A stretch of DNA of 64,000 nt from Lytechinus pictus (GCF_037042905.1 NC_087251.1:49663358-49727357); one strand, 5' to 3'; positions 1 through 40,981 are shown, numbered from the stretch's first letter. Program-made: numbers and translations. The notes: generated by a model from the sequence alone, not told the origin.

Positions 1-91
1 AAATGCATGAAATATACAGATGTGTTATGTAATGACCAATTTTAATGTTACTCCTATAGTCTAGTGCCCTATGGATTTACACACATCCTAC

Positions 92-138
92 CTGTCTAGA
101 TGGAGCTCGACAATGGATGCAATGTAGGGCCAAACATC
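92..138 (-). other. Candidate 47-nt exon (unit 1 coordinates; equivalent segment in every ~985-bp unit)
   Basis: Minus strand reads ttttgcattatAG|GATGTT...CTAGACAG|GTAGGA and translates as DV[W/G]PYIASIVELHLD plus 2 nt, in phase with the 64-nt segment. Splice signals only. Confidence 0.3.
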
Positions 139-738
139 CTATAATGCAAAATTGTAGATATGCATAGTGTGCATATCTGGATGCAAGTACTGCCCACAAT
201 TATAAATACCAGATTCACACGAGTTAAATTTGATAAAAATAAAAAGAAATGAGAATTAACATACAAGCGTACTATACATTCACATCTTCCTATGACAAGG
301 GGTGTAAGAGAGAGATAGGGAGAGAGGGGGGTTAGATGGCTTGTATTCTAAAGGAATGGGGACTAGTCTGGCTAGAAATAAGTAAAAGTTAGAACAAGAT
401 AGCAGTAGCACTCATTCTCAGCCACCCCCCCCCCCCCCAAACACACTTACAATGCTTTTCTCCCCCTCCCCCCTCCCTCTTGAATCCACCACTATTCACT
501 CAAATTCTGAAGTTCTCTGTTCTCCATCCCTTTCCCATGAACCAATTTCACAATTGCAATTGATCAAAGCCTATCTAATGTTTAGTTTCCTGTAATGGGT
601 GCTATACACGAATACAGCAGTGCTCGTTGGTATACAAAAGCACACGAAAACATGCAACGCAGAGGTAACATTAGCCTACACAGCCTAGCCTAGCCTCGGT
701 ATACAAACACAGATGATCTACTAATCACAATTAGTTAC

Positions 739-802
739 CTGATATACCCCCTCTGTAGCCTTGAACATAACCATCAAGTTCAGTTTTTGGACCTCTTGAT
801 GG
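739..802 (-). other. Candidate 64-nt exon (unit 1 coordinates; equivalent segment in every ~985-bp unit)
   Basis: Minus strand reads tgcatgtttcAG|CCATCAAGAG...GGTATATCAG|GTAAC(T/A). One frame is open in all full units inspected (HQEVQK[L/M]NLMVMFKATEGVYQ). Splice signals only; no transcript evidence. Confidence 0.3.
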
Positions 803-3800
803 CTGAAACATGCATACTAGTGAAAATAATTTGCAACTAAAGAGTTTGGGCTGGTGTTTCATCCACTAGGGAATTCCCCTTGTAATAGGCCTAGTCTTGG
901 TTGCATTATATGGCACATGAAGGTTTCTTTTTTTATTTAACTTCCTGGCTTTTCTTTAACATCTGTACACTCACTTTATCACAAAGAAATGCATGAAATA
1001 TACAGATGTGTTATGTAATGACCAATTTTAATGTTACTCCTATAGTCTAGTGCCCTATGGATTTACACACATCCTACCTGTCTAGATGGAGCTCGACAAT
1101 GGATGCAATGTAGGGCCCAACATCCTATAATGCAAAATTGTAGATATGCATAGTGTGCATATCTGGATGCAAGTACTGTCCACAATTATAAATACAAGAT
1201 GCACACGAGTTAAATGAGATAACAATAAAAAGAAATGAAAATTAACATACAAGCGTACTATACATTCACATCTTCCTATGACAAGGGGTGTAAGAGAGAG
1301 ATAGGGAGAGAAGGGGGTTAGATGGCTTGTATTCTAAAGGAATGGGGACTAGTCTGGCTAGAAATAAGTAAAAGTTAGAACAAGATAGCAGTAGCACTCA
1401 TTCTCAGCCACCCCCCCCAGACATACTTACCATGCTTTTCTCCCCCTCCCCCCCCCCCCTCCCTCTTGAATCCACCACTATTCAGTCAAATTCTAAAGTT
1501 CTCTGTTCTCCATCCCTTTCCCATGAACCAATTTCACAATTGCAATTGATCAAAGCCTATCTTATGTTTAGTATCCTGTAATGGGTGCTTTACACGAATA
1601 CAGCAGTGCTCGTTTGTATACAAAAGCACACGAAAACATGCAACGCAGAGGTAACATTAGCCTACACAGCCTAGCCTAGCCTCGCTATACAAACACACAT
1701 GATCTACTAATCACAATTTGTTACCTGATATACCCCCTCTGTAGCCTTGAACATAACCATCAAGTTCATTTTTTGGACCTCTTGATGGCTGAAACATGCA
1801 TACTAGTGAAAATAATTTGCTACTGAAGAGTTTGGGCTGGTGTTTCATCCACTAGGGAATTCCCCTTGCAATATAGAACTAGTCTTGGTTGTATTATATG
1901 GCACATGAAGGTTTCTTTTTTTATTTAACTTCCTGGCTTTTCTTTAACATCTGTACACTCACTTTATCACAAAGAAATGCATGAAATATACAGATGTGTT
2001 ATGTAATGACCAATTTTAATGTTACTCCTATAGTCTAGTGCCCTATGGATTTACACACATCCTACCTGTCTAGATGGAGCTCGACAATGGATGCAATGTA
2101 GGGCCAAACATCCTATAATGCAAAATTGTAGATATGCATAGTGTGCATATCTGGATGCAAGTACTGCCCACAATTATAAATACCAGATTCACACGAGTTA
2201 AATTTGATAACAATAAAAAGAAATGAGAATTAACATACAAGCGTACTATACATTCACATCTTCCTATGACAAGGGGTGTAAGAGAGAGATAGGGAGAGAG
2301 GGGGGTTAGATGGCTTGTATTCTAAAGGAATGGGGACTAGTCTGGCTAGAAATAAGTAAAAGTTAGAACAAGATAGCAGTAGCACTTATTCTCAGCCACC
2401 CCCCCCCCCCCAGACACACTTACAATGCTTTTCTCCCCCTCCCCCCTCCCTCTTGAATCCACCACTATTCACTCAAATTCTGAAGTTCTCTGTTCTCCAT
2501 CCCTTTCCCATGAACCAATTTCACAATTGCAATTGATCAAAGCCTATCTAATGTTTAGTTTCCTGTAATGGGTGCTATACACGAATACAGCAGTGCTCGT
2601 TGGTATACAAAAGCACACGAAAACATGCAACGCAGAGGTAACATTAGCCTACACAGCCTAGCCTAGCCTCGGTATACAAACACAGATGATCTACTAATCA
2701 CAATTAGTTACCTGATATACCCCCTTTGTAGCCTTGAACATAACCATCAAGTTCAGTTTTTGGACCTCTTGATGGCTGAAACATGAATACTAGTGAAAAT
2801 AATTTGCTACTAAAGAGTTTGGGCTGGTGTTTCATCCACTAGGGAATTCCCCTTGTAATAGGCCTAGTCTTGGTTGCATTATATGGCACATGAAGGTTTC
2901 TTTTTTTATTTAACTTCCTGGCTTTTCTTTAACATCTGTACACTCACTTTATCACAAAGAAATGCATGAAATATACAGATGTGTTATGTAATGACCAATT
3001 TTAATGTTACTCCTATAGTCTAGTGCCCTATGGATTTACACACATCCTACCTGTCTAGATGGAGCTCGACAATGGATGCAATGTAGGGCCCAACATCCTA
3101 TAATGCAAAATTGTAGATATGCATAGTGTGCATATCTGGATGCAAGTACTGCCCACAATTATAAATACAAGATTCACACGAGTTAAATGAGATAACAATA
3201 AAAAGAAATGAGAATTAACATACAAGCGTACTATACATTCACATCTTCCTATGACAAGGGGTGTAAGAGAGAGATAGGGAGAGAAGGGGGTTAGATGGCT
3301 TGTATTCTAAAGGAATGGGGACTAGTCTGGCTAGAAATAAGTAAAAGTTAGAACAAGATAGCAGTAGCACTCATTCTCAGCCACCCCCCCCCCCCAGACA
3401 TACTTACCATGCTTTTCTCCCCCTCCCCCCCCCCCTCCCTCTTGAATCCACCACTATTCAGTCAAATTCTAAAGTTCTCTGTTCTCCATCCCTTTCCCAT
3501 GAACCAATTTCACAATTGCAATTGATCAAAGCCTATCTTATGTTTAGTATCCTGTAATGGGTGCTTTACACGAATACAGCAGTGCTCGTTTGTATACAAA
3601 AGCACACGAAAACATGCAACGCAGAGGTAACATTAGCCTACACAGCCTAGCCTAGCCTCGCTATACAAACACACATGATCTACTAATCACAATTTGTTAC
3701 CTGATATACCCCCTCTGTAGCCTTGAACATAACCATCAAGTTCATTTTTTGGACCTCTTGATGGCTGAAACATGCATACTAGTGAAAATAATTTGCTACT

Positions 3801-6800
3801 GAAGAGTTTGGGCTGGTGTTTCATCCACTAGGGAATTCCCCTTGCAATATAGGCCTAGTCTTGGTTGTATTATATGGCACATGAAGGTTTCTTTTTTTAT
3901 TTAACTTCCTGGCTTTTCTTTAACATCTGTACACTCACTTTATCACAAAGAAATGCATGAAATATACAGATGTGTTATGTAATGACCAATTTTAATGTTA
4001 CTCCTATAGTCTAGTGCCCTATGGATTTACACACATCCTACCTGTCTAGATGGAGCTCGACAATGGATGCAATGTAGGGCCAAACATCCTATAATGCAAA
4101 ATTGTAGATATGCATAGTGTGCATATCTGGATGCAAGTACTGCCCACAATTATAAATACCAGATTCACACGAGTTAAATTTGATAACAATAAAAAGAAAT
4201 GAGAATTAACATACAAGCGTACTATACATTCACATCTTCCTATGACAAGGGGTGTAAGAGAGAGATAGGGAGAGAGGGGGGTTAGATGGCTTGTATTCTA
4301 AAGGAATGGGGACTAGTCTGGCTAGAAATAAGTAAAAGTTAGAACAAGATAGCAGTAGCACTTATTCTCAGCCACCCCCCCCCCCCAGACACACTTACAA
4401 TGCTTTTCTCCCCCTCCCCCCTCCCTCTTGAATCCACCACTATTCACTCAAATTCTGAAGTTCTCTGTTCTCCATCCCTTTCCCATGAACCAATTTCACA
4501 ATTGCAATTGATCAAAGCCTATCTAATGTTTAGTTTCCTGTAATGGGTGCTATACACGAATACAGCAGTGCTCGTTGGTATACAAAAGCACACGAAAACA
4601 TGCAACGCAGAGGTAACATTAGCCTACACAGCCTAGCCTAGCCTCGGTATACAAACACAGATGATCTACTAATCACAATTAGTTACCTGATATACCCCCT
4701 CTGTAGCCTTGAACATAACCATCAAGTTCAGTTTTTGGACCTCTTGATGGCTGAAACATGAATACTAGTGAAAATAATTTGCTACTAAAGAGTTTGGGCT
4801 GGTGTTTCATCCACTAGGGAATTCCCCTTGTAATAGGCCTAGTCTTGGTTGCATTATATGGCACATGAAGGTTTCTTTTTTTATTTAACTTCCTGGCTTT
4901 TCTTTAACATCTGTACACTCACTTTATCACAAAGAAATGCATGAAATATACAGATGTGTTATGTAATGACCAATTTTAATGTTACTCCTATAGTCTAGTG
5001 CCCTATGGATTTACACACATCCTACCTGTCTAGATGGAGCTCGACAATGGATGCAATGTAGGGCCCAACATCCTATAATGCAAAATTGTAGATATGCATA
5101 GTGTGCATATCTGGATGCAAGTACTGCCCACAATTATAAATACAAGATTCACACGAGTTAAATGAGATAACAATAAAAAGAAATGAGAATTAACATACAA
5201 GCGTACTATACATTCACATCTTCCTATGACAAGGGGTGTAAGAGAGAGATAGGGAGAGAGGGGGGTTAGATGGCTTGTATTCTAAAGGAATGGGGACTAG
5301 TCTGGCTAGAAATAAGTAAAAGTTAGAACAAGATAGCAGTAGCACTTATTCTCAGCCACCCCCCCCCCAGACACACTTACAATGCTTTTCTCCCCCTCCC
5401 CCCTCCCTCTTGAATCCACCACTATTCACTCAAATTCTGAAGTTCTCTGTTCTCCATCCCTTTCCCATGAACCAATTTCACAATTGCAATTGATCAAAGC
5501 CTATCTAATGTTTAGTATCCTGTAATGGGTGCTTTACACGAATACAGCAGTGCTCGTTGGTATACAAAAGCACACGAAAACATGCAACGCAGAGGTAACA
5601 TTAGCCTACACAGCCTAGCCTAGCCTCGCTATACAAACACACATGATCTACTAATCACAATTTGTTACCTGATATACCCCCTCTGTAGCCTTAAACATAA
5701 CCATCAAGTTCATTTTTTGGACCTCTTGATGGCTGAAACATGCATACTAGTGAAAATAATTTGCTACTAAAGAGTTTGGGCTGGTGTTTCATCCACTAGG
5801 GAATTCCCCTTGTAATAGGCCTAGTCTTGGTTGCATTATATGGCACATGAAGGTTTCTTTTTTTATTTAACTTCCTGGCTTTTCTTTAACATCTGTACAC
5901 TCACTTTATCACAAAGAAATGCATGAAATATACAGATGTGTTATGTAATGACCAATTTTAATGTTACTCCTATAGTCTAGTGCCCTATGGATTTACACAC
6001 ATCCTACCTGTCTAGATGGAGCTCGACAATGGATGCAATGTAGGGCCCAACATCCTATAATGCAAAATTGTAGATATGCATAGTGTGCATATCTGGATGC
6101 AAGTACTGCCCACAATTATAAATACAAGATTCACACGAGTTAAATGAGATAACAATAAAAAGAAATGAGAATTAACATACAAGCGTACTATACATTCACA
6201 TCTTCCTATGACAATGGGTGTAAGAGAGAGATAGGGAGAGAGGGGGGTTAGATGGCTTGTATTCTAAAGGAATGGGGACTAGTCTGGCTAGAAATAAGTA
6301 AAAGTTAGAACAAGATAGCAGTAGCACTCATTCTCAGCCACCCCCCCCCCCCAGACACACTTACAATGCTTTTCTCCCCCTCCCCCCTCCCTCTTGAATC
6401 CACCACTATTCACTCAAATTCTGAAGTTCTCTGTTCTCCATCCCTTTCCCATGAACCAATTTCACAATTGCAATTGATCAAAGCCTATCTTATGTTTAGT
6501 ATCCTGTAATGGGTGCTTTACACGAATACAGCAGTGCTCGTTGGTATACAAAAGCACACGAAAACATGCAACGCAGAGGTAACATTAGCCTACACAGCCT
6601 AGCCTAGCCTCGCTATACAAACACACATGATCTACTAATCACAATTTGTTACCTGATATACCCCCTCTGTAGCCTTGAACATAACCATCAAGTTCATTTT
6701 TTGGACCTCTTGATGGCTGAAACATGCATACTAGTGAAAATAATTTGCTACTAAAGAGTTTGGGCTGGTGTTTCATCCACTAGGGAATTCCCCTTGTAAT

Positions 6801-8869
6801 AGGCCTAGTCTTGGTTGCATTATATGGCACATGAAGGTTTCTTTTTTTATTTAACTTCCTGGCTTTTCTTTAACATCTGTACACTCACTTTATCACAAAG
6901 AAATGCATGAAATATACAGATGTGTTATGTAATGACCAATTTTAATGTTACTCCTATAGTCTAGTGCCCTATGGATTTACACACATCCTACCTGTCTAGA
7001 TGGAGCTCGACAATGGATGCAATGTAGGGCCCAACATCCAATAATGCAAAATTGTAGATATGCATAGTGTGCATATCTGGATGCAAGTACTGCCCACAAT
7101 TATAAATACAAGATTCACACGAGTTAAATGAGATAACAATAAAAAGAAATGAGAATTAACATACAAGCGTACTATACATTCACATCTTCCTATGACAAGG
7201 GGTGTAAGAGAGAGATAGGGAGAGAGGGGGGTTAGATGGCTTGTATTCTAAAGGAATGGGGACTAGTCTGGCTAGAAATAAGTAAAAGTTAGAACAAGAT
7301 AGCAGTAGCACTCATTCTCAGCCACCCCCCCCCCCAGACACACTTACAATGCTTTTCTCCCCCTCCCCCCTCCCTCTTGAATCCACCACTATTCACTCAA
7401 ATTCTGAAGTTCTCTGTTCTCCATCCCTTTCCCATGAACCAATTTCACAATTGCAATTGATCAAAGCCTATCTTATGTTTAGTATCCTGTAATGGGTGCT
7501 TTACACGAATACAGCAGTGCTCGTTGGTATACAAAAGCACACGAAAACATGCAACGCAGAGGTAACATTAGCCTACACAGCCTAGCCTAGCCTCGCTATA
7601 CAAACACACATGATCTACTAATCACAATTTGTTACCTGATATACCCCCTCTGTAGCCTTAAACATAACCATCAAGTTCATTTTTTGGACCTCTTGATGGC
7701 TGAAACATGCATACTAGTGAAAATAATTTGCTACTAAAGAGTTTGGGCTGGTGTTTCATCCACTAGGGAATTCCCCTTGTAATAGGCCTAGTCTTGGTTG
7801 CATTATATGGCACATGAAGGTTTCTTTTTTTATTTAACTTCCTGGCTTTTCTTTAACATCTGTACACTCACTTTATCACAAAGAAATGCATGAAATATAC
7901 AGATGTGTTATGTAATGACCAATTTTAATGTTACTCCTATAGTCTAGTGCCCTATGGATTTACACACATCCTACCTGTCTAGATGGAGCTCGACAATGGA
8001 TGCAATGTAGGGCCCAACATCCTATAATGCAAAATTGTAGATATGCATAGTGTGCATATCTGGATGCAAGTACTGCCCACAATTATAAATACAAGATTCA
8101 CACGAGTTAAATGAGATAACAATAAAAAGAAATGAGAATTAACATACAAGCGTACTATACATTCACATCTTCCTATGACAAGGGGTGTAAGAGAGAGATA
8201 GGGAGAGAGGGGGGTTAGATGGCTTGTATTCTAAAGGAATGGGGACTAGTCTGGCTAGAAATAAGTAAAAGTTAGAACAAGATAGCAGTAGCACTCATTC
8301 TCAGCCACCCCCCCCCCCCCCAGACACACTTACAATGCTTTTCTCCCCCTCCCCCCTCCCTCTTGAATCCACCACTATTCACTCAAATTCTGAAGTTCTC
8401 TGTTCTCCATCCCTTTCCCATGAACCAATTTCACAATTGCAATTGATCAAAGCCTATCTTATGTTTAGTATCCTGTAATGGGTGCTTTACACGAATACAG
8501 CAGTGCTCGTTGGTATACAAAAGCACACAAAAACATGCAACGCAGAGGTAACATTAGCCTACACAGCCTAGCCTAGCCTCGCTATACAAACACACATGAT
8601 CTACTAATCACAATTTGTTACCTGATATACCCCCTCTGTAGCCTTGAACATAACCATCAAGTTCATTTTTTGGACCTCTTGATGGCTGAAACATGCATAC
8701 TAGTGAAAATAATTTGCTACTAAAGAGTTTGGGCTGGTGTTTCATCCACTAGGGAATTCCCCTTGTAATAGGCCTAGTCTTGGTTGCATTATATGGCACA
8801 TGAAGGTTTCTTTTTTTATTTAACTTCCTGGCTTTTCTTTAACATCTGTACACTCACTTTATCACAAAG

Positions 8870-11800
8870 AAATGCATGAAATATACAGATGTGTTATGTA
8901 ATGACCAATTTTAATGTTACTCCTATAGTCTAGTGCCCTATGGATTTACACACATCCTACCTGTCTAGATGGAGCTCGACAATGGATGCAATGTAGGGCC
9001 CAACATCCTATAATGCAAAATTGTAGATATGCATAGTGTGCATATCTGGATGCAAGTACTGCCCACAATTATAAATACAAGATTCACACGAGTTAAATGA
9101 GATAACAATAAAAAGAAATGAGAATTAACATACAAGCGTACTATACATTCACATCTTCCTATGACAAGGGGTGTAAGAGAGAGATAGGGAGAGAGGGGGG
9201 TTAGATGGCTTGTATTCTAAAGGAATGGGGACTAGTCTGGCTAGAAATAAGTAAAAGTTAGAACAAGATAGCAGTAGCACTCATTCTTAGCCACCCCCCC
9301 AGACATACTTACCATGCTTTTCTCCCCCTTCCCCCCCCCCTCCCTCTTGAATCCACCACTATTCAGTCAAATTCTAAAGTTCTCTGTTCTCCATCCCTTT
9401 CCCATGAACCAATTTCACAATTGCAATTGATCAAAGCCTATCTTATGTTTAGTATCCTGTAATGGGTGCTTTACACGAATACAGCAGTGCTCGTTGGTAT
9501 ACAAAAGCACACGAAAACATGCAACGCAGAGGTAACATTAGCCTACACAGCCTAGCCTAGCCTCGCTATACAAACACACATGATCTACTAATCACAATTT
9601 GTTACCTGATATACCCCCTCTGTAGCCTTGAACATAACCATCAAGTTCATTTTTTGGACCTCTTGATGGCTGAAACATGGATACTAGTGAAAATAATTTG
9701 CTACTGAAGAGTTTGGGCTGGTGTTTCATCCACTAGGGAATTCCCCTTGCAATATAGGCCTAGTCTTGGTTGTATTATATGGCAAATGAAGGTTTCTTTT
9801 TTTATTTAACTTCCTGGCTTTTCTTTAACATCTGTACACTCACTTTATCACAAAGAAATGCATGAAATATACAGATGTGTTATGTAATGACCAATTTTAA
9901 TGTTACTCCTATAGTCTAGTGCCCTATGGATTTACACACATCCTACCTGTCTAGATGGAGCTCGACAATGGATGCAATGTAGGGCCCAACATCCTATAAT
10001 GCAAAATTGTAGATATGCATAGTGTGCATATCTGGATGCAAGTACTGCCCACAATTATAAATACCAGATTCACACGAGTTAAATTTGATAACAATAAAAA
10101 GAAATGAGAATTAACATACAAGCGTACTATACATTCACATCTTCCTATGACAAGGGGTGTAAGAGAGAGATAGGGAGAGAGGGGGGTTAGATGGCTTGTA
10201 TTCTAAAGGAATGGGGACTAGTCTGGCTAGAAATAAGTAAAAGTTAGAACAAGATAGCAGTAGCACTCATTCTCAGCCACCCCCCCCCCCAGACACACTT
10301 ACAATGCTTTTCTCCCCCTCCCCCCTCCCTCTTGAATCCACCACTATTCACTCAAATTCTGAAGTTCTCTGTTCTCCATCCCTTTCCCATGAACCAATTT
10401 CACAATTGCAATTGATCAAAGCCTATCTAATGTTTAGTTTCCTGTAATGGGTGCTATACACGAATACAGCAGTGCTCGTTGGTATACAAAAGCACACGAA
10501 AACATGCAACGCAGAGGTAACATTAGCCTACACAGCCTAGCCTAGCCTCGGTATACAAACACAGATGATCTACTAATCACAATTTGTTACCTGATATACC
10601 CCCTCTGTAGCCTTAAACATAACCATCAAGTTCATTTTTTGGACCTCTTGATGGCTGAAACATGCATACTAGTGAAAATAATTTGCTACTAAAGAGTTTG
10701 GGCTGGTGTTTCATCCACTAGGGAATTCCCCTTGTAATAGGCCTAGTCTTGGTTGCATTATATGGCACACGAAGGTTTCTTTTTTTATTTAACTTCCTGG
10801 CTTTTCTTTAACATCTGTACACTCACTTTATCACAAAGAAATGCATGAAATATACAGATGTGTTATGTAATGACCAATTTTAATGTTACTCCTATAGTCT
10901 AGTGCCCTATGGATTTACACACATCCTACCTGTCTAGATGGAGCTCGACAATGGATGCAATGTAGGGCCCAACATCCTATAATGCAAAATTGTAGATATG
11001 CATAGTGTGCATATCTGGATGCAAGTACTGCCCACAATTATAAATACAAGATTCACACGAGTTAAATGAGATAACAATAAAAAGAAATGAGAATTAACAT
11101 ACAAGCGTACTATACATTCACATCTTCCTATGACAAGGGGTGTAAGAGAGAGATAGGGAGAGAGGGGGGTTAGATGGCTTGTATTCTAAAGGAATGGGGA
11201 CTAGTCTGGCTAGAAATAAGTAAAAGTTAGAACAAGATAGCAGTAGCACTCATTCTCAGCCACCCCCCCCCCCCAGACACACTTACAATGCTTTTCTCCC
11301 CCTCCCCCCTCCCTCTTGAATCCAACACTATTCACTCAAATTTTGAAGTTCTCTGTTCTCCATCCCTTTCCCATGAACCAATTTCACAATTGCAATTGAT
11401 CAAAGCCTATCTTATGTTTAGTATCCTGTAATGGGTGCTTTACACGAATACAGCAGTGCTCGTTGGTATACAAAAGCACACGAAAACATGCAACGCAGAG
11501 GTAACATTAGCCTACACAGCCTAGCCTAGCCTCGCTATACAAACACACATGATCTACTAATCACAATTTGTTACCTGATATACCCCCTCTGTAGCCTTGA
11601 ACATAACCATCAAGTTCATTTTTTGGACCTCTTGATGGCTGAAACATGCATACTAGTGAAAATAATTTGCTACTAAAGAGTTTGGGCTGGTGTTTCATCC
11701 ACTAGGGAATTCCCCTTGTAATAGGCCTAGTCTTGGTTGCATTATATGGCACATGAAGGTTTCTTTTTTTATTTAACTTCCTGGCTTTTCTTTAACATCT

Positions 11801-26600: not shown

Positions 26601-26611
26601 TTATCACAAAG

Positions 26612-29600
26612 AAATGCATGAAATATACAGATGTGTTATGTAATGACCAATTTTAATGTTACTCCTATAGTCTAGTGCCCTATGGATTTACACACATCCT
26701 ACCTGTCTAGATGGAGCTCGACAATGGATGCAATGTAGGGCCCAACATCCTATAATGCAAAATTGTAGATATGCATAGTGTGCATATCTGGATGCAAGTA
26801 CTGCCCACAATTATAAATACCAGATTCACACGAGTTAAATTTGATAACAATAAAAAGAAATGAGAATTAACATACAAGCGTACTATACATTCACATCTTC
26901 CTATGACAAGGGGTGTAAGAGAGAGATAGGGAGAGAGGGGGGTTAGATGGCTTGTATTCTAAAGGAATGGGGACTAGTCTGGCTAGAAATAAGTAAAAGT
27001 TAGAACAAGATAGCAGTAGCACTCATTCTCAGCCACCCCCCCCCCAGACACACTTACAATGCTTTTCTCCCCCTCCCCCCTCCCTCTTGAATCCACCACT
27101 ATTCACTCAAATTCTGAAGTTCTCTGTTCTCCATCCCTTTCCCATGAACCAATTTCACAATTGCAATTGATCAAAGCCTATCTAATGTTTAGTTTCCTGT
27201 AATGGGTGCTATACACGAATACAGCAGTGATCGTTGGTATACAAAAGCACACGAAAACATGCAACGCAGAGGTAACATTAGCCTACACAGCCTAGCCTAG
27301 CCTCGGTATACAAACACAGATGATCTACTAATCACAATTTGTTACCTGATATACCCCCTCTGTAGCCTTAAACATAACCATCAAGTTCATTTTTTGGACC
27401 TCTTGATGGCTGAAACATGCATACTAGTGAAAATAATTTGCTACTAAAGAGTTTGGGCTGGTGTTTCATCCACTAGGGAATTCCCCTTGTAATAGGCCTA
27501 GTCTTGGTTGCATTATATGGCACACGAAGGTTTCTTTTTTTATTTAACTTCCTGGCTTTTCTTTAACATCTGTACACTCACTTTATCACAAAGAAATGCA
27601 TGAAATATACAGATGTGTTATGTAATGACCAATTTTAATGTTACTCCTATAGTCTAGTGCCCTATGGATTTACACACATCCTACCTGTCTAGATGGAGCT
27701 CGACAATGGATGCAATGTAGGGCCCAACATCCTATAATGCAAAATTGTAGATATGCATAGTGTGCATATCTGGATGCAAGTACTGCCCACAATTATAAAT
27801 ACAAGATTCACACGAGTTAAATGAGATAACAATAAAAAGAAATGAGAATTAACATACAAGCGTACTATACATTCACATCTTCCTATGACAAGGGGTGTAA
27901 GAGAGAGATAGGGAGAGAGGGGGGTTAGATGGCTTGTATTCTAAAGGAATGGGGACTAGTCTGGCTAGAAATAAGTAAAAGTTAGAACAAGATAGCAGTA
28001 GCACTCATTCTCAGCCACCCCCCCCCCCAGACACACTTACAATGCTTTTCTCCCCCTCCCCCCTCCCTCTTGAATCCAACACTATTCACTCAAATTTTGA
28101 AGTTCTCTGTTCTCCATCCCTTTCCCATGAACCAATTTCACAATTGCAATTGATCAAAGCCTATCTTATGTTTAGTATCCTGTAATGGGTGCTTTACACG
28201 AATACAGCAGTGCTCGTTGGTATACAAAAGCACACGAAAACATGCAACGCAGAGGTAACATTAGCCTACACAGCCTAGCCTAGCCTCGCTATACAAACAC
28301 ACATGATCTACTAATCACAATTTGTTACCTGATATACCCCCTCTGTAGCCTTGAACATAACCATCAAGTTCATTTTTTGGACCTCTTGATGGCTGAAACA
28401 TGCATACTAGTGAAAATAATTTGCTACTAAAGAGTTTGGGCTGGTGTTTCATCCACTAGGGAATTCCCCTTGTAATAGGCCTAGTCTTGGTTGCATTATA
28501 TGGCACATGAAGGTTTCTTTTTTTATTTAACTTCCTGGCTTTTCTTTAACATCTGTACACTCACTTTATCACAAAGAAATGCATGAAATATACAGATGTG
28601 TTATGTAATGACCAATTTTAATGTTACTCCTATAGTCTAGTGCCCTATGGATTTACACACATCCTACCTGTCTAGATGGAGCTCGACAATGGATGCAATG
28701 TAGGGCCCAACATCCTATAATGCAAAATTGTAGATATGCATAGTGTGCATATCTGGATGCAAGTACTGCCCACAATTATAAATACAAGATTCACACGAGT
28801 TAAATGAGATAACAATAAAAAGAAATGAGAATTAACATACAAGCGTACTATACATTCACATCTTCCTATGACAAGGGGTGTAAGAGAGAGATAGGGAGAG
28901 AGGGGGGTTAGATGGCTTGTATTCTAAAGGAATGGGGACTAGTCTGGCTAGAAATAAGTAAAAGTTAGAACAAGATAGCAGTAGCACTCATTCTTAGCCA
29001 CCCCCCCAGACATACTTACCATGCTTTTCTCCCCCTTCCCCCCCCCCTCCCTCTTGAATCCACCACTATTCAGTCAAATTCTAAAGTTCTCTGTTCTCCA
29101 TCCCTTTCCCATGAACCAATTTCACAATTGCAATTGATCAAAGCCTATCTTATGTTTAGTATCCTGTAATGGGTGCTTTACACGAATACAGCAGTGCTCG
29201 TTGGTATACAAAAGCACACGAAAACATGCAACGCAGAGGTAACATTAGCCTACACAGCCTAGCCTAGCCTCGCTATACAAACACACATGATCTACTAATC
29301 ACAATTTGTTACCTGATATACCCCCTCTGTAGCCTTGAACATAACCATCAAGTTCATTTTTTGGACCTCTTGATGGCTGAAACATGGATACTAGTGAAAA
29401 TAATTTGCTACTGAAGAGTTTGGGCTGGTGTTTCATCCACTAGGGAATTCCCCTTGCAATATAGGCCTAGTCTTGGTTGTATTATATGGCACATGAAGGT
29501 TTCTTTTTTTATTTAACTTCCTGGCTTTTCTTTAACATCTGTACACTCACTTTATCACAAAGAAATGCATGAAATATACAGATGTGTTATGTAATGACCA

Positions 29601-32600
29601 ATTTTAATGTTACTCCTATAGTCTAGTGCCCTATGGATTTACACACATCCTACCTGTCTAGATGGAGCTCGACAATGGATGCAATGTAGGGCCAAACATC
29701 CTATAATGCAAAATTGTAGATATGCATAGTGTGCATATCTGGATGCAAGTACTGCCCACAATTATAAATACCAGATTCACACAAGTTAAATTTGATAACA
29801 ATAAAAAGAAATGAGAATTAACATACAAGCGTACTATACATTCACATCTTCCTATGACAAGGGGTGTAAGAGAGAGATAGGGAGAGAGGGGGGTTAGATG
29901 GCTTGTATTCTAAAGGAATGGGGACTAGTCTGGCTAGAAATAAGTAAAAGTTAGAACAAGATAGCAGTAGCACTCATTCTCAGCCACCCCCCCCCCCCAG
30001 ACACACTTACAATGCTTTTCTCCCCCTCCCCCCTCCCTCTTGAATCCACCACTATTCACTCAAATTCTGAAGTTCTCTGTTCTCCATCCCTTTCCCATGA
30101 ACCAATTTCACAATTGCAATTGATCAAAGCCTATCTAATGTTTAGTTTCCTGTAATGGGTGCTATACACGAATCCAGCAGTGCTCGTTGGTATACAAAAG
30201 CACACGAAAACATGCAACGCAGAGGTAACATTAGCCTACACAGCCTAGCCTAGCCTCGGTATACAAACACAGATGATCTACTAATCACAATTTGTTACCT
30301 GATATACCCCCTCTGTAGCCTTAAACATAACCATCAAGTTCATTTTTTGGACCTCTTGATGGCTGAAACATGCATACTAGTGAAAATAATTTGCTACTAA
30401 AGAGTTTGGGCTGGTGTTTCATCCACTAGGGAATTCCCCTTGTAATAGGCCTAGTCTTGGTTGCATTATATGGCACATGAAGGTTTCTTTTTTTATTTAA
30501 CTTCCTGGCTTTTCTTTAACATCTGTACACTCACTTTATCACAAAGAAATGCATGAAATATACAGATGTGTTATGTAATGACCAATTTTAATGTTACTCC
30601 TATAGTCTAGTGCCCTATGGATTTACACACATCCTACCTGTCTAGATGGAGCTCGACAATGGATGCAATGTAGGGCCCAACATCCTATAATGCAAAATTG
30701 TAGATATGCATAGTGTGCATATCTGGATGCAAGTACTGCCCACAATTATAAATACAAGATTCACACGAGTTAAATGAGATAACAATAAAAAGAAATGAGA
30801 ATTAACATACAAGCGTACTATACATTCACATCTTCCTATGACAAGGGGTGTAAGAGAGAGATAGGGAGAGAGGGGGGTTAGATGGCTTGTATTCTAAAGG
30901 AATGGGGACTAGTCTGGCTAGAAATAAGTAAAAGTTAGAACAAGATAGCAGTAGCACTCATTCTCAGCCACCCCCCCCCCCCAGACACACTTACAATGCT
31001 TTTCTCCCCCTCCCCCCTCCCTCTTGAATCCACCACTATTCACTCAAATTCTGAAGTTCTCTGTTCTCCATCCCTTTCCCATGAACCAATTTCACAATTG
31101 CAATTGATCAAAGCCTATCTTATGTTTAGTATCCTGTAATGGGTGCTTTACACGAATACAGCAGTGCTCGTTGGTATACAAAAGCACACGAAAACATGCA
31201 ACGCAGAGGTAACATTAGCCTACACAGCCTAGCCTAGCCTCGCTATACAAACACACATGATCTACTAATCACAAATTTGTTACCTGATATACCCCCTCTG
31301 TAGCCTTGAACATAACCATCAAGTTCAGTTTTTGGACCTCTTGATGGCTGAAACATGAATACTAGTGAAAATAATTTGCTACTAAAGAGTTTGGGCTGGT
31401 GTTTCATCCACTAGGGAATTCCCCTTGTAATAGGCCTAGTCTTGGTTGCATTATATGGCACATGAAGGTTTCTTTTTTTATTTAACTTCCTGGCTTTTCT
31501 TTAACATCTGTACACTCACTTTATCACAAAGAAATGCATGAAATATACAGATGTGTTATGTAATGACCAATTTTAATGTTACTCCTATAGTCTAGTGCCC
31601 TATGGATTTACACACATCCTACCTGTCTAGATGGAGCTCGACAATGGATGCAATGTAGGGCCCAACATCCTATAATGCAAAATTGTAGATATGCATAGTG
31701 TGCATATCTGGATGCAAGTACTGCCCACAATTATAAATACAAGATTCACACGAGTTAAATGAGATAACAATAAAAAGAAATGAGAATTAACATACAAGCG
31801 TACTATACATTCACATCTTCCTATGACAAGGGGTGTAAGAGAGAGATAGGGAGAGAGGGGGGTTAGATGGCTTGTATTCTAAAGGAATGGGGACTAGTCT
31901 GGCTAGAAATAAGTAAAAGTTAGAACAAGATAGCAGTAGCACTCATTCTTAGCCACCCCCCCAGACATACTTACCATGCTTTTCTCCCCCTTCCCCCCCC
32001 CCTCCCTCTTGAATCCACCACTATTCAGTCAAATTCTAAAGTTCTCTGTTCTCCATCCCTTTCCCATGAACCAATTTCACAATTGCAATTGATCAAAGCC
32101 TATCTTATGTTTAGTATCCTGTAATGGGTGCTTTACACGAATACAGCAGTGCTCGTTGGTATACAAAAGCACACGAAAACATGCAACGCAGAGGTAACAT
32201 TAGCCTACACAGCCTAGCCTAGCCTCGCTATACAAACACACATGATCTACTAATCACAATTTGTTACCTGATATACCCCCTCTGTAGCCTTGAACATAAC
32301 CATCAAGTTCATTTTTTGGACCTCTTGATGGCTGAAACATGGATACTAGTGAAAATAATTTGCTACTGAAGAGTTTGGGCTGGTGTTTCATCCACTAGGG
32401 AATTCCCCTTGCAATATAGGCCTAGTCTTGGTTGTATTATATGGCAAATGAAGGTTTCTTTTTTTATTTAACTTCCTGGCTTTTCTTTAACATCTGTACA
32501 CTCACTTTATCACAAAGAAATGCATGAAATATACAGATGTGTTATGTAATGACCAATTTTAATGTTACTCCTATAGTCTAGTGCCCTATGGATTTACACA

Positions 32601-35600
32601 CATCCTACCTGTCTAGATGGAGCTCGACAATGGATGCAATGTAGGGCCCAACATCCTATAATGCAAAATTGTAGATATGCATAGTGTGCATATCTGGATG
32701 CAAGTACTGCCCACAATTATAAATACCAGATTCACACGAGTTAAATTTGATAACAATAAAAAGAAATGAGAATTAACATACAAGCGTACTATACATTCAC
32801 ATCTTCCTATGACAAGGGGTGTAAGAGAGAGATAGGGAGAGAGGGGGGTTAGATGGCTTGTATTCTAAAGGAATGGGGACTAGTCTGGCTAGAAATAAGT
32901 AAAAGTTAGAACAAGATAGCAGTAGCACTCATTCTCAGCCACCCCCCCCCCCCAGACACACTTACAATGCTTTTCTCCCCCTCCCCCCTCCCTCTTGAAT
33001 CCACCACTATTCACTCAAATTCTGAAGTTCTCTGTTCTCCATCCCTTTCCCATGAACCAATTTCACAATTGCAATTGATCAAAGCCTATCTAATGTTTAG
33101 TTTCCTGTAATGGGTGCTATACACGAATACAGCAGTGCTCGTTGGTATACAAAAGCACACGAAAACATGCAACGCAGAGGTAACATTAGCCTACACAGCC
33201 TAGCCTAGCCTCGGTATACAAACACAGATGATCTACTAATCACAATTTGTTACCTGATATACCCCCTCTGTAGCCTTAAACATAACCATCAAGTTCATTT
33301 TTTGGACCTCTTGATGGCTGAAACATGCATACTAGTGAAAATAATTTGCTACTAAAGAGTTTGGGCTGGTGTTTCATCCACTAGGGAATTCCCCTTGTAA
33401 TAGGCCTAGTCTTGGTTGCATTATATGGCACACGAAGGTTTCTTTTTTTATTTAACTTCCTGGCTTTTCTTTAACATCTGTACACTCACTTTATCACAAA
33501 GAAATGCATGAAATATACAGATGTGTTATGTAATGACCAATTTTAATGTTACTCCTATAGTCTAGTGCCCTATGGATTTACACACATCCTACCTGTCTAG
33601 ATGGAGCTCGACAATGGATGCAATGTAGGGCCCAACATCCTATAATGCAAAATTGTAGATATGCATAGTGTGCATATCTGGATGCAAGTACTGCCCACAA
33701 TTATAAATACAAGATTCACACGAGTTAAATGAGATAACAATAAAAAGAAATGAGAATTAACATACAAGCGTACTATACATTCACATCTTCCTATGACAAG
33801 GGGTGTAAGAGAGAGATAGGGAGAGAGGGGGGTTAGATGGCTTGTATTCTAAAGGAATGGGGACTAGTCTGGCTAGAAATAAGTAAAAGTTAGAACAAGA
33901 TAGCAGTAGCACTCATTCTCAGCCACCCCCCCCCCCCAGACACACTTACAATGCTTTTCTCCCCCTCCCCCCTCCCTCTTGAATCCAACACTATTCACTC
34001 AAATTTTGAAGTTCTCTGTTCTCCATCCCTTTCCCATGAACCAATTTCACAATTGCAATTGATCAAAGCCTATCTTATGTTTAGTATCCTGTAATGGGTG
34101 CTTTACACGAATACAGCAGTGCTCGTTGGTATACAAAAGCACACGAAAACATGCAACGCAGAGGTAACATTAGCCTACACAGCCTAGCCTAGCCTCGCTA
34201 TACAAACACACATGATCTACTAATCACAATTTGTTACCTGATATACCCCCTCTGTAGCCTTGAACATAACCATCAAGTTCATTTTTTGGACCTCTTGATG
34301 GCTGAAACATGCATACTAGTGAAAATAATTTGCTACTAAAGAGTTTGGGCTGGTGTTTCATCCACTAGGGAATTCCCCTTGTAATAGGCCTAGTCTTGGT
34401 TGCATTATATGGCACATGAAGGTTTCTTTTTTTATTTAACTTCCTGGCTTTTCTTTAACATCTGTACACTCACTTTATCACAAAGAAATGCATGAAATAT
34501 ACAGATGTGTTATGTAATGACCAATTTTAATGTTACTCCTATAGTCTAGTGCCCTATGGATTTACACACATCCTACCTGTCTAGATGGAGCTCGACAATG
34601 GATGCAATGTAGGGCCCAACATCCTATAATGCAAAATTGTAGATATGCATAGTGTGCATATCTGGATGCAAGTACTGCCCACAATTATAAATACAAGATT
34701 CACACGAGTTAAATGAGATAACAATAAAAAGAAATGAGAATTAACATACAAGCGTACTATACATTCACATCTTCCTATGACAAGGGGTGTAAGAGAGAGA
34801 TAGGGAGAGAGGGGGGTTAGATGGCTTGTATTCTAAAGGAATGGGGACTAGTCTGGCTAGAAATAAGTAAAAGTTAGAACAAGATAGCAGTAGCACTCAT
34901 TCTTAGCCACCCCCCCAGACATACTTACCATGCTTTTCTCCCCCTTCCCCCCCCCCTCCCTCTTGAATCCACCACTATTCAGTCAAATTCTAAAGTTCTC
35001 TGTTCTCCATCCCTTTCCCATGAACCAATTTCACAATTGCAATTGATCAAAGCCTATCTTATGTTTAGTATCCTGTAATGGGTGCTTTACACGAATACAG
35101 CAGTGCTCGTTGGTATACAAAAGCACACGAAAACATGCAACGCAGAGGTAACATTAGCCTACACAGCCTAGCCTAGCCTCGCTATACAAACACACATGAT
35201 CTACTAATCACAATTTGTTACCTGATATACCCCCTCTGTAGCCTTGAACATAACCATCAAGTTCATTTTTTGGACCTCTTGATGGCTGAAACATGGATAC
35301 TAGTGAAAATAATTTGCTACTGAAGAGTTTGGGCTGGTGTTTCATCCACTAGGGAATTCCCCTTGCAATATAGGCCTAGTCTTGGTTGTATTATATGGCA
35401 CATGAAGGTTTCTTTTTTTATTTAACTTCCTGGCTTTTCTTTAACATCTGTACACTCACTTTATCACAAAGAAATGCATGAAATATACAGATGTGTTATG
35501 TAATGACCAATTTTAATGTTACTCCTATAGTCTAGTGCCCTATGGATTTACACACATCCTACCTGTCTAGATGGAGCTCGACAATGGATGCAATGTAGGG

Positions 35601-37443
35601 CCAAACATCCTATAATGCAAAATTGTAGATATGCATAGTGTGCATATCTGGATGCAAGTACTGCCCACAATTATAAATACCAGATTCACACGAGTTAAAT
35701 TTGATAACAATAAAAAGAAATGAGAATTAACATACAAGCGTACTATACATTCACATCTTCCTATGACAAGGGGTGTAAGAGAGAGATAGGGAGAGAGGGG
35801 GGTTAGATGGCTTGTATTCTAAAGGAATGGGGACTAGTCTGGCTAGAAATAAGTAAAAGTTAGAACAAGATAGCAGTAGCACTCATTCTCAGCCACCCCC
35901 CCCCCCAGACACACTTACAATGCTTTTCTCCCCCTCCCCCCTCCCTCTTGAATCCACCACTATTCACTCAAATTCTGAAGTTCTCTGTTCTCCATCCCTT
36001 TCCCATGAACCAATTTCACAATTGCAATTGATCAAAGCCTATCTAATGTTTAGTTTCCTGTAATGGGTGCTATACACGAATACAGCAGTGCTCGTTGGTA
36101 TACAAAAGCACACGAAAACATGCAACGCAGAGGTAACATTAGCCTACACAGCCTAGCCTAGCCTCGGTATACAAACACAGATGATCTACTAATCACAATT
36201 TGTTACCTGATATACCCCCTCTGTAGCCTTAAACATAACCATCAAGTTCATTTTTTGGACCTCTTGATGGCTGAAACATGCATACTAGTGAAAATAATTT
36301 GCTACTAAAGAGTTTGGGCTGGTGTTTCATCCACTAGGGAATTCCCCTTGTAATAGGCCTAGTCTTGGTTGCATTATATGGCACATGAAGGTTTCTTTTT
36401 TTATTTAACTTCCTGGCTTTTCTTTAACATCTGTACACTCACTTTATCACAAAGAAATGCATGAAATATACAGATGTGTTATGTAATGACCAATTTTAAT
36501 GTTACTCCTATAGTCTAGTGCCCTATGGATTTACACACATCCTACCTGTCTAGATGGAGCTCGACAATGGATGCAATGTAGGGCCCAACATCCTATAATG
36601 CAAAATTGTAGATATGCATAGTGTGCATATCTGGATGCAAGTACTGCCCACAATTATAAATACAAGATTCACACGAGTTAAATGAGATAACAATAAAAAG
36701 AAATGAGAATTAACATACAAGCGTACTATACATTCACATCTTCCTATGACAAGGGGTGTAAGAGAGAGATAGGGAGAGAGGGGGGTTAGATGGCTTGTAT
36801 TCTAAAGGAATGGGGACTAGTCTGGCTAGAAATAAGTAAAAGTTAGAACAAGATAGCAGTAGCACTCATTCTCAGCCACCCCCCCCCCCCCCCAGACACA
36901 CTTACAATGCTTTTCTCCCCCTCCCCCCTCCCTCTTGAATCCACCACTATTCACTCAAATTCTGAAGTTCTCTGTTCTCCATCCCTTTCCCATGAACCAA
37001 TTTCACAATTGCAATTGATCAAAGCCTATCTTATGTTTAGTATCCTGTAATGGGTGCTTTACACGAATACAGCAGTGCTCGTTGGTATACAAAAGCACAC
37101 GAAAACATGCAACGCAGAGGTAACATTAGCCTACACAGCCTAGCCTAGCCTCGCTATACAAACACACATGATCTACTAATCACAATTTGTTACCTGATAT
37201 ACCCCCTCTGTAGCCTTGAACATAACCATCAAGTTCATTTTTTGGACCTCTTGATAGCTGAAACATGCATACTAGTGAAAATAATTTGCTACTGAAGAGT
37301 TTGGGCTGGTGTTTCATCCACTAGGGAATTCCCCTTGCAATATAGGCCTAGTCTTGGTTGTATTATATGGCACATGAAGGTTTCTTTTTTTATTTAACTT
37401 CCTGGCTTTTCTTTAACATCTGTACACTCACTTTATCACAAAG
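26612..37443. repeat. Further ~2 copies of the same 6-unit higher-order repeat
   Basis: The same markers occur in the same order: GGCACACGAA ~27519 and ~33427, TCCAACACTA ~28075 and ~33984, CACACAAGTT ~29778, TCACAAATTTG ~31269, GGCAAATGAA ~32443. Confidence 0.85.
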
Positions 37444-38622
37444 AAATGCATGAAATATACAGATGTGTTATGTAATGACCAATTTTAATGTTACTCCTTT
37501 AGTCTAGTGCCCTATGGATTTACACACATCCTACCTGTCTAGATGGAGCTCGACAATGGATGCAATGTAGGGCCCAACATCCTATAATGCAAAATTGTAG
37601 ATATGCATAGTGTGCATATCTGGATGCAAGTACTGCCCACAATTATAAATACAAGATTCACACGAGTTAAATGAGATAACAATAAAAAGAAATGAGAATT
37701 AACATACAAGCGTACTATACATTCACATCTTCCTATGACAAGGGGTGTAAGAGAGAGATAGGGAGAGAGGGGGGTTAGATGGCTTGTATTCTAAAGGAAT
37801 GGGGACTAGTCTGGCTAGAAATAAGTAAAAGTTAGAACAAGATAGCAGTAGCACTCATTCTCAGCCACCCCCCCCCCAGACATACTTACCATGCTTTTCT
37901 CCCCCTCCCCCCCCCCCCTCCCTCTTGAATCCACCACTATTCAGTCAAATTCTAAAGTTCTCTGTTCTCCATCCCTTTCCCATGAACCAATTTCACAATT
38001 GCAATTGATCAAAGCCTATCTTATGTTTAGTATCCTGTAATGGGTGCTTTACACGAATACAGCAGTGCTCGTTGGTATACAAAAGCACACGAAAACATGC
38101 AACGCAGAGGTAACATTAGCCTACACAGCCTAGCCTAGCCTCGCTATACAAACACACATGATCTACTAATCACAATTTGTTACCTGATATACCCCCTCTG
38201 TAGCCTTGAACATAACCATCAAGTTCAGTTTTTGGACCTCTTGATGGCTGAAACATGCATACTAGTGAAAATAATTTGCTACTGAAGAGTTTGGGCTGGT
38301 GTTTCATCCACTAGGGAATTCCCCTTGTAATAGACCTAATCTTGGTTGTATTATATGGCACATGAAGGTTTCTTTTTTTATTTAACTTCCTGGCTTTTCT
38401 TTAACATCTGTACATTCACTTTATCACAAAGAAATGCATGAAATATACAGATGTGTTATGTAATGACCAATTTTAATGTTACTCCTATATAGTCTAGTGC
38501 CCTATGGATTTACACACATCCTACCTGCCTATATGTAGCTCGACAATGGATGCAATGTAGGGCCCAACATCCTATAATGCAAAATTGTAGATATGCATAG
38601 TGTGCATATCTGGATGCAAGTA

Positions 38623-38858
38623 GGATGGGGGATCGGGTGTCCGGACACTTTATATTTTTGAAGCCTTCTTTTTTGTCTTAAAATTACACTAAAAATATTA
38701 ATTCAATAGTTGTAATCATCTTCTATTTTGTTCTCTATAATATTTTCTAAAATTTTGTACTAAAATTTGATGAAACTTCGCTTGTAATTTTTTCCAAATG
38801 ACTTTCTAAAATTGATCGTCCGGACACACAACCTGTCCGGACACACAACAACTGGGTA
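38623..38858. mobile_element. 236-bp non-autonomous (MITE-like) insertion flanked by TA on both sides
   Basis: The empty site in other units is GCAAG-TA-CTGCCC; here it reads GCAAG-TA[GGATGG...CTGGGTA]TA-CTGCCC. The interior is AT-rich, with subterminal GTCCGGACAC motifs near both ends (38637-38648; 38818-38832; 38835-38849). Confidence 0.8.
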
Positions 38859-39526
38859 TACTGCCCACAATTATAAATACCAGATTCACACGAGTTAAAT
38901 TTGATAACAACAAAAAGAAATGAGAATTAACATACAAGCGTACTATACATTCACATCTTCCTATGACAAGGGGTGTAAGAGAGAGATGGGGAGAGAGGGG
39001 GGTTAGATGGCTTGTATTCTAAAGCCAAAGGAATGGGGGCTAGTCTGGCTAGAAATAAGTAAAAGTTAGAACAAGATAGCAGTGTTAGCACTCATTCTCA
39101 GCCACCCCCCCCCCCCCCCAGACATACTTACCATGCTTTTCTCCCCCTCCCCACCTCCCTCTTGAATCCACCACTATTCAGTCAAATTCTAAAGTTCTCT
39201 GTTCTACATCCCTTTCCCATGAACCAATTTCACAATTGCAATTGATCAAAGCCTATCTAATGTTTAGTATCCTGTAATGGGTGCTATACACGAATACAGC
39301 AGTGCTCGTTGGTATACAAAAACACACGAAAACATGCAATGCAGAGGTAACATTAGCCTACACAGCCTAGCCCTAGCGCGGTTATACAAACACAGATATT
39401 TTATTAGTATATATCTGTATATGTGTACTAATCACAATTTGTTACCTGATATATATACCCCCTCTGTAGCCTTGAACATAACCATTAAGTTCAGTTTTGG
39501 ACCTCTTGATGGCTGAAACATGCATA

Positions 39527-39818
39527 TACAGCCACTGCGAGTGCGAAGCGCGAACAGAATTTTGAATTGTTTATATGACGGCCTGAAAGATGTTTGTTAG
39601 AGACTAAAATTGTTGGGAGCTAGTATAACAGTGGCATGATGACAAAGTTTCAAAATTTGAAGAGTGAAACATGTTGCTTTAGAGCTCTTTATAACTTGAG
39701 TAGGATATTTATGATAACACTTACTTAACTTCCTTCAGCCTTTTCAAGATTTCTGGGGGGTCTTGACTATAGGAGGCAAATGCCCCTTCCCCCGTTGCCC
39801 CCCTTGGTGCCGCCACTG
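39527..39818 (-). mobile_element. Truncated non-autonomous DNA-transposon-like fragment (one CAGTGGCGG-type terminus)
   Basis: Ends in ...GCCCCCCTTGGTGCCGCCACTG at 39818 (minus strand CAGTGGCGGCACCAAGGGGGGC), resembling termini of hAT-like non-autonomous elements. An internal GCGAGTGCGAAGCGCGA motif is present. The partner terminus is not seen. Family assignment is from recollection, not a search. Confidence 0.45.
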
Positions 39819-39965
39819 ATTGTTCCACTGATAAAGTGGTTGGTTATATCCAGAACTGTTGTACCAAAATTGCCAAATTTTGATATTCCCAAGGATTTAA
39901 TTAACTGGATTTTCCCAAATAGGGTTAAATCCCGTTGCTTCCACCATCCTAACATTCAATAAAGT
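39819..39965 (-). mobile_element. Degenerate L1/Tx1-clade non-LTR retrotransposon ORF2 fragment (region C-terminal of RT)
   Basis: The minus-strand translation WWKQRDLTLFGKIQLIKSLGISKF matches the characteristic W..R.LS/TL.G+..L/IIKSL..SK motif of L1/Tx1 ORF2. An in-frame TGA lies immediately upstream, so the fragment is non-functional. Confidence 0.7.
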
Positions 39966-40135
39966 TTTTTGTTCATGTTGTTGCTCTTACTTAGCGTTTT
40001 CAATCTATTTCTTTTAGTTATTTACATCTGCTGCCCTGCATATCATTTATTACTTCGTGATACGTGCTTCATCTAATAAAGTGTTTATCAAATAAATACA
40101 TATTTCGAATACATTATATATTTAGCAAGGATGAT

Positions 40136-40241
40136 ATAATAATAATAATATAGGGTAGGGTATTTATATTGCGCACATATCCACATTGTTGGTGCTCAAC
40201 GCGCTCCTATATTACCCGGCTAAGCTAGGCGTTCATAGCGC
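40136..40241 (-). mobile_element. 3' tail fragment of an L2-type LINE or L2-tailed SINE
   Basis: Minus strand reads ...GAGCGCGTTGAGCACC...GGATATGTGCGCAATATAAATA...TATTATTATTATT. This fits a GCGC-closed stem-loop followed by TATAAAT and a (TAT)n tail, typical of L2/SINE2 3' ends. Confidence 0.55.
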
Positions 40242-40288
40242 GAAATAGAGTGAAACTGGGGAGCCCCGGCTAGAGAGAAAGGAAAAGA

Positions 40289-40690
40289 GATTGAGATCAA
40301 GGGGGGGGGGGGGGTAGTCACGACATTATGCGAGTCCGTTCATTCATGTTTCATAAATAAACAGAGAGTGCAAGAAAGAGTGAGGGGGGAAGAGAAACTA
40401 AACAAAGGAACAGATATTGAGATGGAGGGGGATTGTATGCCCTACAGGGGGGGGGGGGAGAGAAAGAGAACTTTGCCATTATAGAGAACAAAACAACCGA
40501 GATTTGGATGGAGGGGGGGGGGGGGTGACGAGGACATTACGCCAGTCAATTCATTCATGATTCATAAAGAAACAGAGAGGTTGGTGTGCTTAGACAGAGA
40601 GAGGCCGGAAGAGAGAAATCGAAACTTGAGAACGATTGGGATGGAGTCCATTCATTTATGTACAAGAGTGAGCTCGTCCATTCGTTCATT
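40289..40690. repeat. G/GA-rich low-complexity region with a diverged ~211-bp-offset duplication
   Basis: poly-G...GACATTA..CGAGTCCGTTCATTCATGTTTCATAAATAAACAGAGAG (~40289-40368) aligns with poly-G...GACATTA..CCAGTCAATTCATTCATGATTCATAAAGAAACAGAGAG (~40501-40579). Further partial GTCCATTC copies lie at ~40645 and ~40677. Confidence 0.6.
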
Positions 40691-40981
40691 TACAAATTGA
40701 TGAAGCATTAGAACTATCGCCAAGTCCATGCACCTGCGCTCTTCAGTTTTTCATTGTCCATAGTGTCCCCATATTCGCCGGCGGTTGCGCGCGGGTGCCA
40801 CTTCCTTATGAAAAAAAACCATAAAGGACTCGTCCATTATACATAGGTATGAATCGAGGTAGACTCGGCAAGATACATTATATTTCCTTCGCTCGTGATG
40901 CATCCCGGGCAGGCGTATGAAAAATGACATAATGGTGTTAAAATAGACAAAACTGCAAGGTGCGGCTAGAATGATGCTAGA

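Follow-up and report, generated by a model that had tools for sequence, protein, structure and literature searches.

The KolobokP DNA transposons, as presented in the text of PMC9587614, have the arrangement LTDR-INT-LTDR, where an internal region (INT) stands between two direct repeats (LTDRs) of ~450 or 660 bp, each with its own terminal inverted repeat (TIR) of 11-18 bp and with RR..YY ends. According to the same text, target duplications of 3-5 bp surround monomers and solo LTDRs, multimers occur as well, and the INT-INT joints carry micro-deletions of 3-4 bp which are ascribed to LTDR excision; one of the families named there, KolobokP-N2_LyPi, is 1,904 bp long with LTDRs of 465/464 bp. 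In this work we have analysed a 64,000-nt stretch of Lytechinus pictus DNA (GCF_037042905.1 NC_087251.1:49663358-49727357; hereafter the window, with positions counted from its first letter), in which positions 1..39526 are occupied by a head-to-tail array of a ~985-bp unit. A first-pass annotation had noticed two minus-strand exon-like segments in each unit and had proposed a giant repeat-protein gene, a spliced repeat long non-coding RNA or an amplified piece of an intron-containing gene. Our results make it very probable that the array is a non-coding macrosatellite formed from the INT of a non-autonomous KolobokP transposon (plus strand), the member of a new family which is sister to KolobokP-N2_LyPi.

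The identity of the unit was recognized from its copies elsewhere in the genome, since it is dispersed across many contigs and there a single INT is flanked by two direct 466-bp LTDRs (complete in L043, L044 and L045, with a partial second repeat in L034 and L037). The LTDR has a 17-bp TIR with 14/17 nt matching and ends with GG..CC. Solo LTDRs are numerous: a query containing the LTDR gave 4,430 first-look candidates, 40 of which were scored. A perfect 4-bp target duplication was seen in two of the three whole elements and in two of the five clean solos, the other three solos matching at 3/4 nt. In the solos L047, L048 and L049 the 4-bp flanks match with one mismatch, and two of them carry the first four bases of the INT on the right; a circular intermediate may be behind these flanks. 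Within the array the INT end is joined directly to the INT start with 3 nt lost and without LTDR (883..905, plus strand), which would be the footprint of LTDR excision. In its true register one INT runs from unit position ~902 to ~899 of the next unit (902..1886, plus strand).

The relatives of the unit point in the same direction. A motif of the N2 family matched 968 places in the genome, and three of these copies are colinear with the unit by BLAST, being 77-81% identical in the LTDR and 60-62% in the INT. A motif of the autonomous family matched 89 places, and autonomous elements lie for instance at C8:21260600-21263300 and C7:10447828-10450850; one autonomous element is 83% identical in the LTDR and 67% at both INT ends (E 3e-18 and 1e-7), while in a second one (L061) the right INT end is 70% identical and the open reading frame (ORF) encodes a His-Me nuclease (PF05551, E 4e-11). 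The LTDR and the INT ends are thus homologous to those of the autonomous elements L061 and L062, and by sequence comparison the unit appears to descend from an autonomous KolobokP of the type that carries a DDD/E transposase along with a His-Me nuclease on the opposite strand. The transposase profile PF20700 was run only on L053 and L054, which are more remote; L053-L055 match the LTDR only over its first 58-75 nt, and L060, another His-Me element, matched neither the unit nor the LTDR. The Rfam search of 37400-41400 gave no hit.

In the window 40 unit starts were located, spaced 982-993 bp apart, which correspond to 39 full units and a broken terminal unit reaching 39526, and the pairwise divergence of the units averages 1.3%. 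A higher-order periodicity of 3 units, and also of 14, 17 and 20, was observed over positions 1-38431. The array extends ~53 kb leftward past the window, to a total of ~94 units and ~93 kb; both ends of it were read, and ~12 kb in between are covered only by similarity matches. The far (left) end is decayed and is cut by another element. The LTDR was found neither in the window nor in the upstream stretches examined, and it is still present at the left end of five other INT arrays. The terminal incomplete unit (38432..39526, plus strand) stops at unit position ~817 and has no right-hand LTDR.

The array probably originated in four steps. An autonomous element would have been internally deleted to give an INT of ~985 bp; unequal crossover between the direct LTDRs would have formed a multimer (LTDR-INT)n; excision of an inner LTDR by the transposase would have left the INT-INT joint with the 3-nt loss; and this joint unit would have been expanded and homogenised by unequal crossover and conversion, the growth being modest at the majority of loci but reaching ~94 units in the present array. 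Arrays of the sister family with a ~1,455-bp period (LTDR-INT) broken by ~980-bp steps (INT-INT) were seen at C1:20.30-20.34 Mb, C7:31.70 Mb and C5:47.21 Mb, and these mixed-period arrays would represent intermediates of the proposed route. Autonomous His-Me-encoding elements are also present in long tandem arrays, with periods of ~4,461 and ~4,348 bp, at C8:21.26-21.30 Mb and C5:35.94-35.97 Mb and on the small contigs C109, C157, C174, C200, C214, C219, C273 and C361, several of which seem to be made up of such arrays.

The splice-like pattern itself was reproduced as it had been described. Segment A (64 nt, 739..802, minus strand) has an AG acceptor and a CAG/GTAA donor, segment B (47 nt, 92..138, minus strand) belongs to that end of the INT which, in autonomous elements, comes before the transposase, and the introns implied between them are 600 and 275 nt long. 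In the full units of the window the A acceptor, the A donor and the B donor are present in 39/39 cases and the B acceptor in 38/39, the exception being unit 8 at position 7040, as had been pointed out. When the segments (64+47=111 nt) were joined in silico from unit 39 to unit 1, the proposed frame had 0 stops in 1,442 codons, and the other frames had 10 and 117; the 10 stops of the second frame are those of the 10 units with the common variant, which is indeed synonymous in the proposed frame and a stop in the other open one. The window together with 40 kb upstream contains 80 A and 80 B segments, with 0 stops in 2,944 codons and with the B acceptor lost in 3/80. The indels noticed earlier in the terminal A were also seen (39512-39446; 67 nt, -1/+4): it is the first A of the array in the minus-strand reading order, it is frameshifted, and a stop is reached at the 7th codon of that frame.

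Such a long spliced open frame is, however, weak evidence of a gene, since the 80 units are homogenised with ~1% divergence and contain only ~10 independent changes. The freedom of the two segments from indels and the variation of the poly-C tracts, which had been noted before, were both seen. Over the full length of the unit, however, the 39 units have indels at only four places, namely two poly-C tracts and unit positions 728 and 884, and A/B have 5 variable sites, thus the lack of indels or stops in A and B is uninformative. The suggested comparison of exon and intron variation revealed no depletion, with substitutions at 5/111 sites in A/B and at 44/875 outside (39 units, Fisher p=1). Over 80 units 10 sites of A/B vary, of which 7 are nonsynonymous and 3 synonymous according to our own reading of the variants, where the neutral expectation is 21% synonymous (79% amino-acid-changing) and ~4% stops per change. 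The variation of A and B is neutral, with no selection visible, in a test of low power. A two-exon, in-frame, open pair appeared in 21 of 1,000 dinucleotide shuffles under rules set after A and B had been seen; when an open repeat of either one or two exons was accepted, the number rose to 256 of 1,000.

The RNA test was carried out over 38165-41100 with one raw stranded RNA run, of which 6% was read, and with three contig sets that are possibly DNA. The 11 joints listed at the threshold of 3 reads in these four runs include no A/B junction, neither A-B nor B-A, so the recommended junction check turned out negative and neither the spliced repeat RNA nor the gene gained support from it. Over 38165-38556 the raw depth of the first mate is 9-24 on the plus strand and 0-2.4 on the minus; provided that the library is a standard one, this corresponds to RNA of the minus strand. 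The depth does not fall within the 275-nt 'intron', and near 38330, at the passage of a monomer into its LTDR, it declines from 29 to 3. Non-array alleles were found in 30/32 reads at 38301 and in 14/14 at 38385, alleles which are absent from 80/80 array units, and the allele at 38301 is the mark of old copies (4 loci). The source of this RNA is therefore other copies, or a differing individual or species. A contig of organism B (depth 4.6) aligns over 38184-38323 and departs exactly at donor A, with 249 nt of it left unaligned, but it reads through the A acceptor without being joined to B, in a run that is possibly DNA; in an X1 contig (depth 41) the sequence continues past donor A without splicing.

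The fate of A and B was then followed outside this array. In other arrays of the family a frameshift or stop is present in 23/39 A and 17/32 B segments (4 partial B matches and the C7 loci were left out of the count), and among monomers A is broken in 2/12, both of them old copies, and B in 0/6. Since it is intact in young monomers, the 64+47 open form can be regarded as the state of a young master, which was not kept after amplification. In the N2-type sister family neither length is kept (A 51-53 nt, B 49-53 nt), and A and B are conserved there about as much as the rest of the unit (52-66% vs 52-70%). Donor A is present in 3/3 sister-family copies; the A acceptor AG is present in that family, but neither of the two autonomous relatives and none of the 5 old copies has it; B has a donor-like motif in 2/3 sister-family copies and lacks the acceptor. 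In the two autonomous relatives a CAG/GTAA donor is located within the INT, at 154 and ~186 nt from its end and upstream of the ATG of the His-Me nuclease on the same strand, at distances of 187 and 180 nt. Judged from these motifs, donor A is probably real, and we consider it reasonably likely, although far from certain, that it is the donor of an intron in the 5' untranslated region (5'-UTR) of the nuclease transcript, with A as the predicted end of a non-coding first exon. Segment A would then be a probable relic of such an exon, matching as it does the donor upstream of the nuclease ORF, and donor A a probable relic from the His-Me nuclease transcript of the minus strand. Both acceptors, like the open frame of 111 nt, would be chance features of the family master, spread by homogenisation. 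Altogether A and B look like leftover and chance splice signals and not like a coding two-exon module. The notion of an amplified piece of an intron-containing gene was thereby borne out in one respect, as the unit is a deletion derivative of a KolobokP INT and its donor A matches the one upstream of the nuclease ORF, and it failed in the other, no coding two-exon module being involved.

The proposal that a minus-strand transcript of the array is spliced A-B-A-B into the messenger RNA of a giant protein of 37-aa repeats can be credited with the canonical AG/GT ends, the uninterrupted 2,944 codons, the synonymous nature of the commonest A variant, the rarity of the pattern in shuffles (21/1,000) and the minus-strand bias of RNA over the unit. 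It has to face the lack of A/B joints (0/11), read alleles which none of the 80 units carries, amino-acid changes at 7/10 variable sites, near the neutral 79%, a first A with frameshift and stop, 3/80 lost B acceptors, a decayed and interrupted far end, no LTDR found upstream, almost no RNA on the linker beside the array, and paralogous arrays that are broken in 23/39 A and 17/32 B. No homologous protein was found either, the queries being unspliced frames, of 21-31 aa for A and of 40 aa over B: Pfam had no match for the A frames and one weak match (E 0.17) for the frame over B, phmmer against 1.84 billion proteins returned one match (E 3e-4), which was rejected as a repetitive protein unlike the query, and in the ESM Atlas the best hit of the unspliced frames (0.77, unnamed) was not credible. 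The 37-aa unit may have a HEAT-like look. We regard this gene as highly improbable. A non-coding, partly spliced repeat RNA from a tissue or stage outside our sample, for which the relic donor A would serve as a cryptic site together with the acceptors, fits the conservation of donor A across families and the organism-B contig that departs exactly there, and RNA was sampled in one raw run; but that contig passes the A acceptor, has no joint to B and may be DNA, the X1 contig is unspliced at donor A, and array alleles occur in at most 2/32 raw reads at 38301 and 0/14 at 38385. Such an RNA is very unlikely. It is very unlikely that the array is read through and spliced across units in an unsampled germline or embryonic stage, so as to give an RNA of 111-nt periodicity in which thousands of codons would be read in one frame; if this were true, a repeat gene would have been born de novo from the non-coding interior of a DNA transposon, with one real donor kept and two acceptors gained.

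A different origin of the unit was also considered, as the interior of a non-autonomous long terminal repeat (LTR) retroelement of the terminal-repeat-in-miniature (TRIM) kind or as a host-gene fragment captured between two miniature inverted-repeat transposable elements (MITEs). LTR elements, too, would be compatible with direct repeats at the termini, with numerous solos and with duplications of 4 bp, but the ends are GG..CC with a 17-bp TIR and not TG..CA, and homology links both the repeat and the ends of the INT to His-Me nuclease elements and to published KolobokP families, the latter by eye and by BLAST against genomic copies, so we give this origin practically no credence. The paired LTDRs differ by 7-12 nt, the same as unpaired ones, which is uninformative for the choice between LTR element and DNA transposon. 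Helitron capture of host exons was dropped; the idea that a MITE unrelated to the unit had inserted as the 466-bp element was dropped because this element flanks single units on both sides; the C3 copy L020 as source gene was dropped because it is decayed with nested insertions; and the +8 form of B as the ancestral one was dropped because monomers have 47 nt. In the INT copy of L020 a satellite of ~120-bp period is inserted (6640-8620).

Several observations weigh against the interpretation of the array as a non-coding INT macrosatellite. One of the three whole elements has no target duplication (2/4 nt), and the RNA test covers 6% of one raw run and three possibly-DNA contig sets. The A/B pair is somewhat unusual compared with chance, and none of the 80 array units examined interrupts the frame. 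Monomers of the family also have A of 64 and B of 47 nt, broken in 0/7 A and 0/6 B of the young ones, and the open form as young-master state mildly favours the gene proposed in the first-pass annotation. Finally, the 5'-UTR intron of the nuclease is predicted from motifs alone.

On the right the terminal unit contains a ~238-bp insertion (38623..38860) with TA repeated at its ends, a different, abundant repeat, which is skipped by joints in the four runs and has high depth on both strands. In place of the right LTDR there is a 1.46-kb linker (39527..40981), common to other INT arrays, with almost no RNA depth except at a high-copy repeat at ~40125-40240. These two abundant short repeats (38623-38860 and 40125-40240) have very high depth in all four runs, and the second is strand-biased in the raw RNA. 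The linker adjoins a 169-bp satellite (40982..64000, plus strand) of 136 copies with 99% matches. Linker copies at >=89% identity are present on 9 contigs, and the satellite follows the linker at 6 loci (here and at 5 others examined). INT array, linker and satellite were seen as one recurring cassette on C1, C3, C8, C10, C11, C14, C17 and C18; the expansion would have taken place inside this cassette, which would have been copied to several chromosomes. The cassette or linker lies <=100 kb from the contig end on five contigs (C1, C7, C14, C17, C18), a position which assembly breaks may have caused.

The locus is mainly a false lead which is now explained, as an open frame obtained by splicing says little for a gene when the array is homogenised. 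D4Z4/DUX4 is a coding macrosatellite, and our array resembles it in its large tandemly repeated unit, its open frame and its position close to a contig end; it differs in that there is no selection on the frame, there are no junction reads and no homologue was found. What remains is of modest value, for transposon specialists, and concerns array growth and the nuclease donor: an INT macrosatellite can be propagated together with a second satellite in the form of a cassette, and the donor kept before the His-Me nuclease ORF is suggestive of splicing in a nuclease transcript from the right LTDR, of which a word search of the PMC9587614 text found no discussion. The family is not among the four given for this urchin in Table S1 of PMC9587614, and its four supplements gave no match to six short words taken from the unit, in a search of one strand where line breaks may hide matches; in the literature that was accessible to our search no publication on such an array turned up.

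Among the described elements, the autonomous KolobokP of the KolobokP-1_LyPi type shares with the unit the LTDR (80-83% identity), the INT ends (67-70%) and the donor before the nuclease ORF, whereas it has the transposase and His-Me nuclease ORFs, lost in the unit, and is without the acceptor AG of A. KolobokP-N2_LyPi is closer in build, with an LTDR of ~465 bp, a 4-bp target duplication, a 16-17-bp TIR and a colinear INT of ~975-990 bp, but N2-type genomic copies are only ~80% (LTDR) and ~62% (INT) identical, which makes ours a separate family. The multimers LTDR-(INT)n-LTDR, such as KolobokP-1_MeMe (PMC9587614), have the same LTDR-less INT-INT joints with a 3-4-bp loss, and the longest run named in the text is (INT)4, though the coordinate file may list more arrays. 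Here, with no LTDR found at either end, LTDR-less INT runs that reach up to four units in that text can be seen to attain ~94 units, a macrosatellite of ~93 kb which stands in one cassette with the 169-bp satellite.

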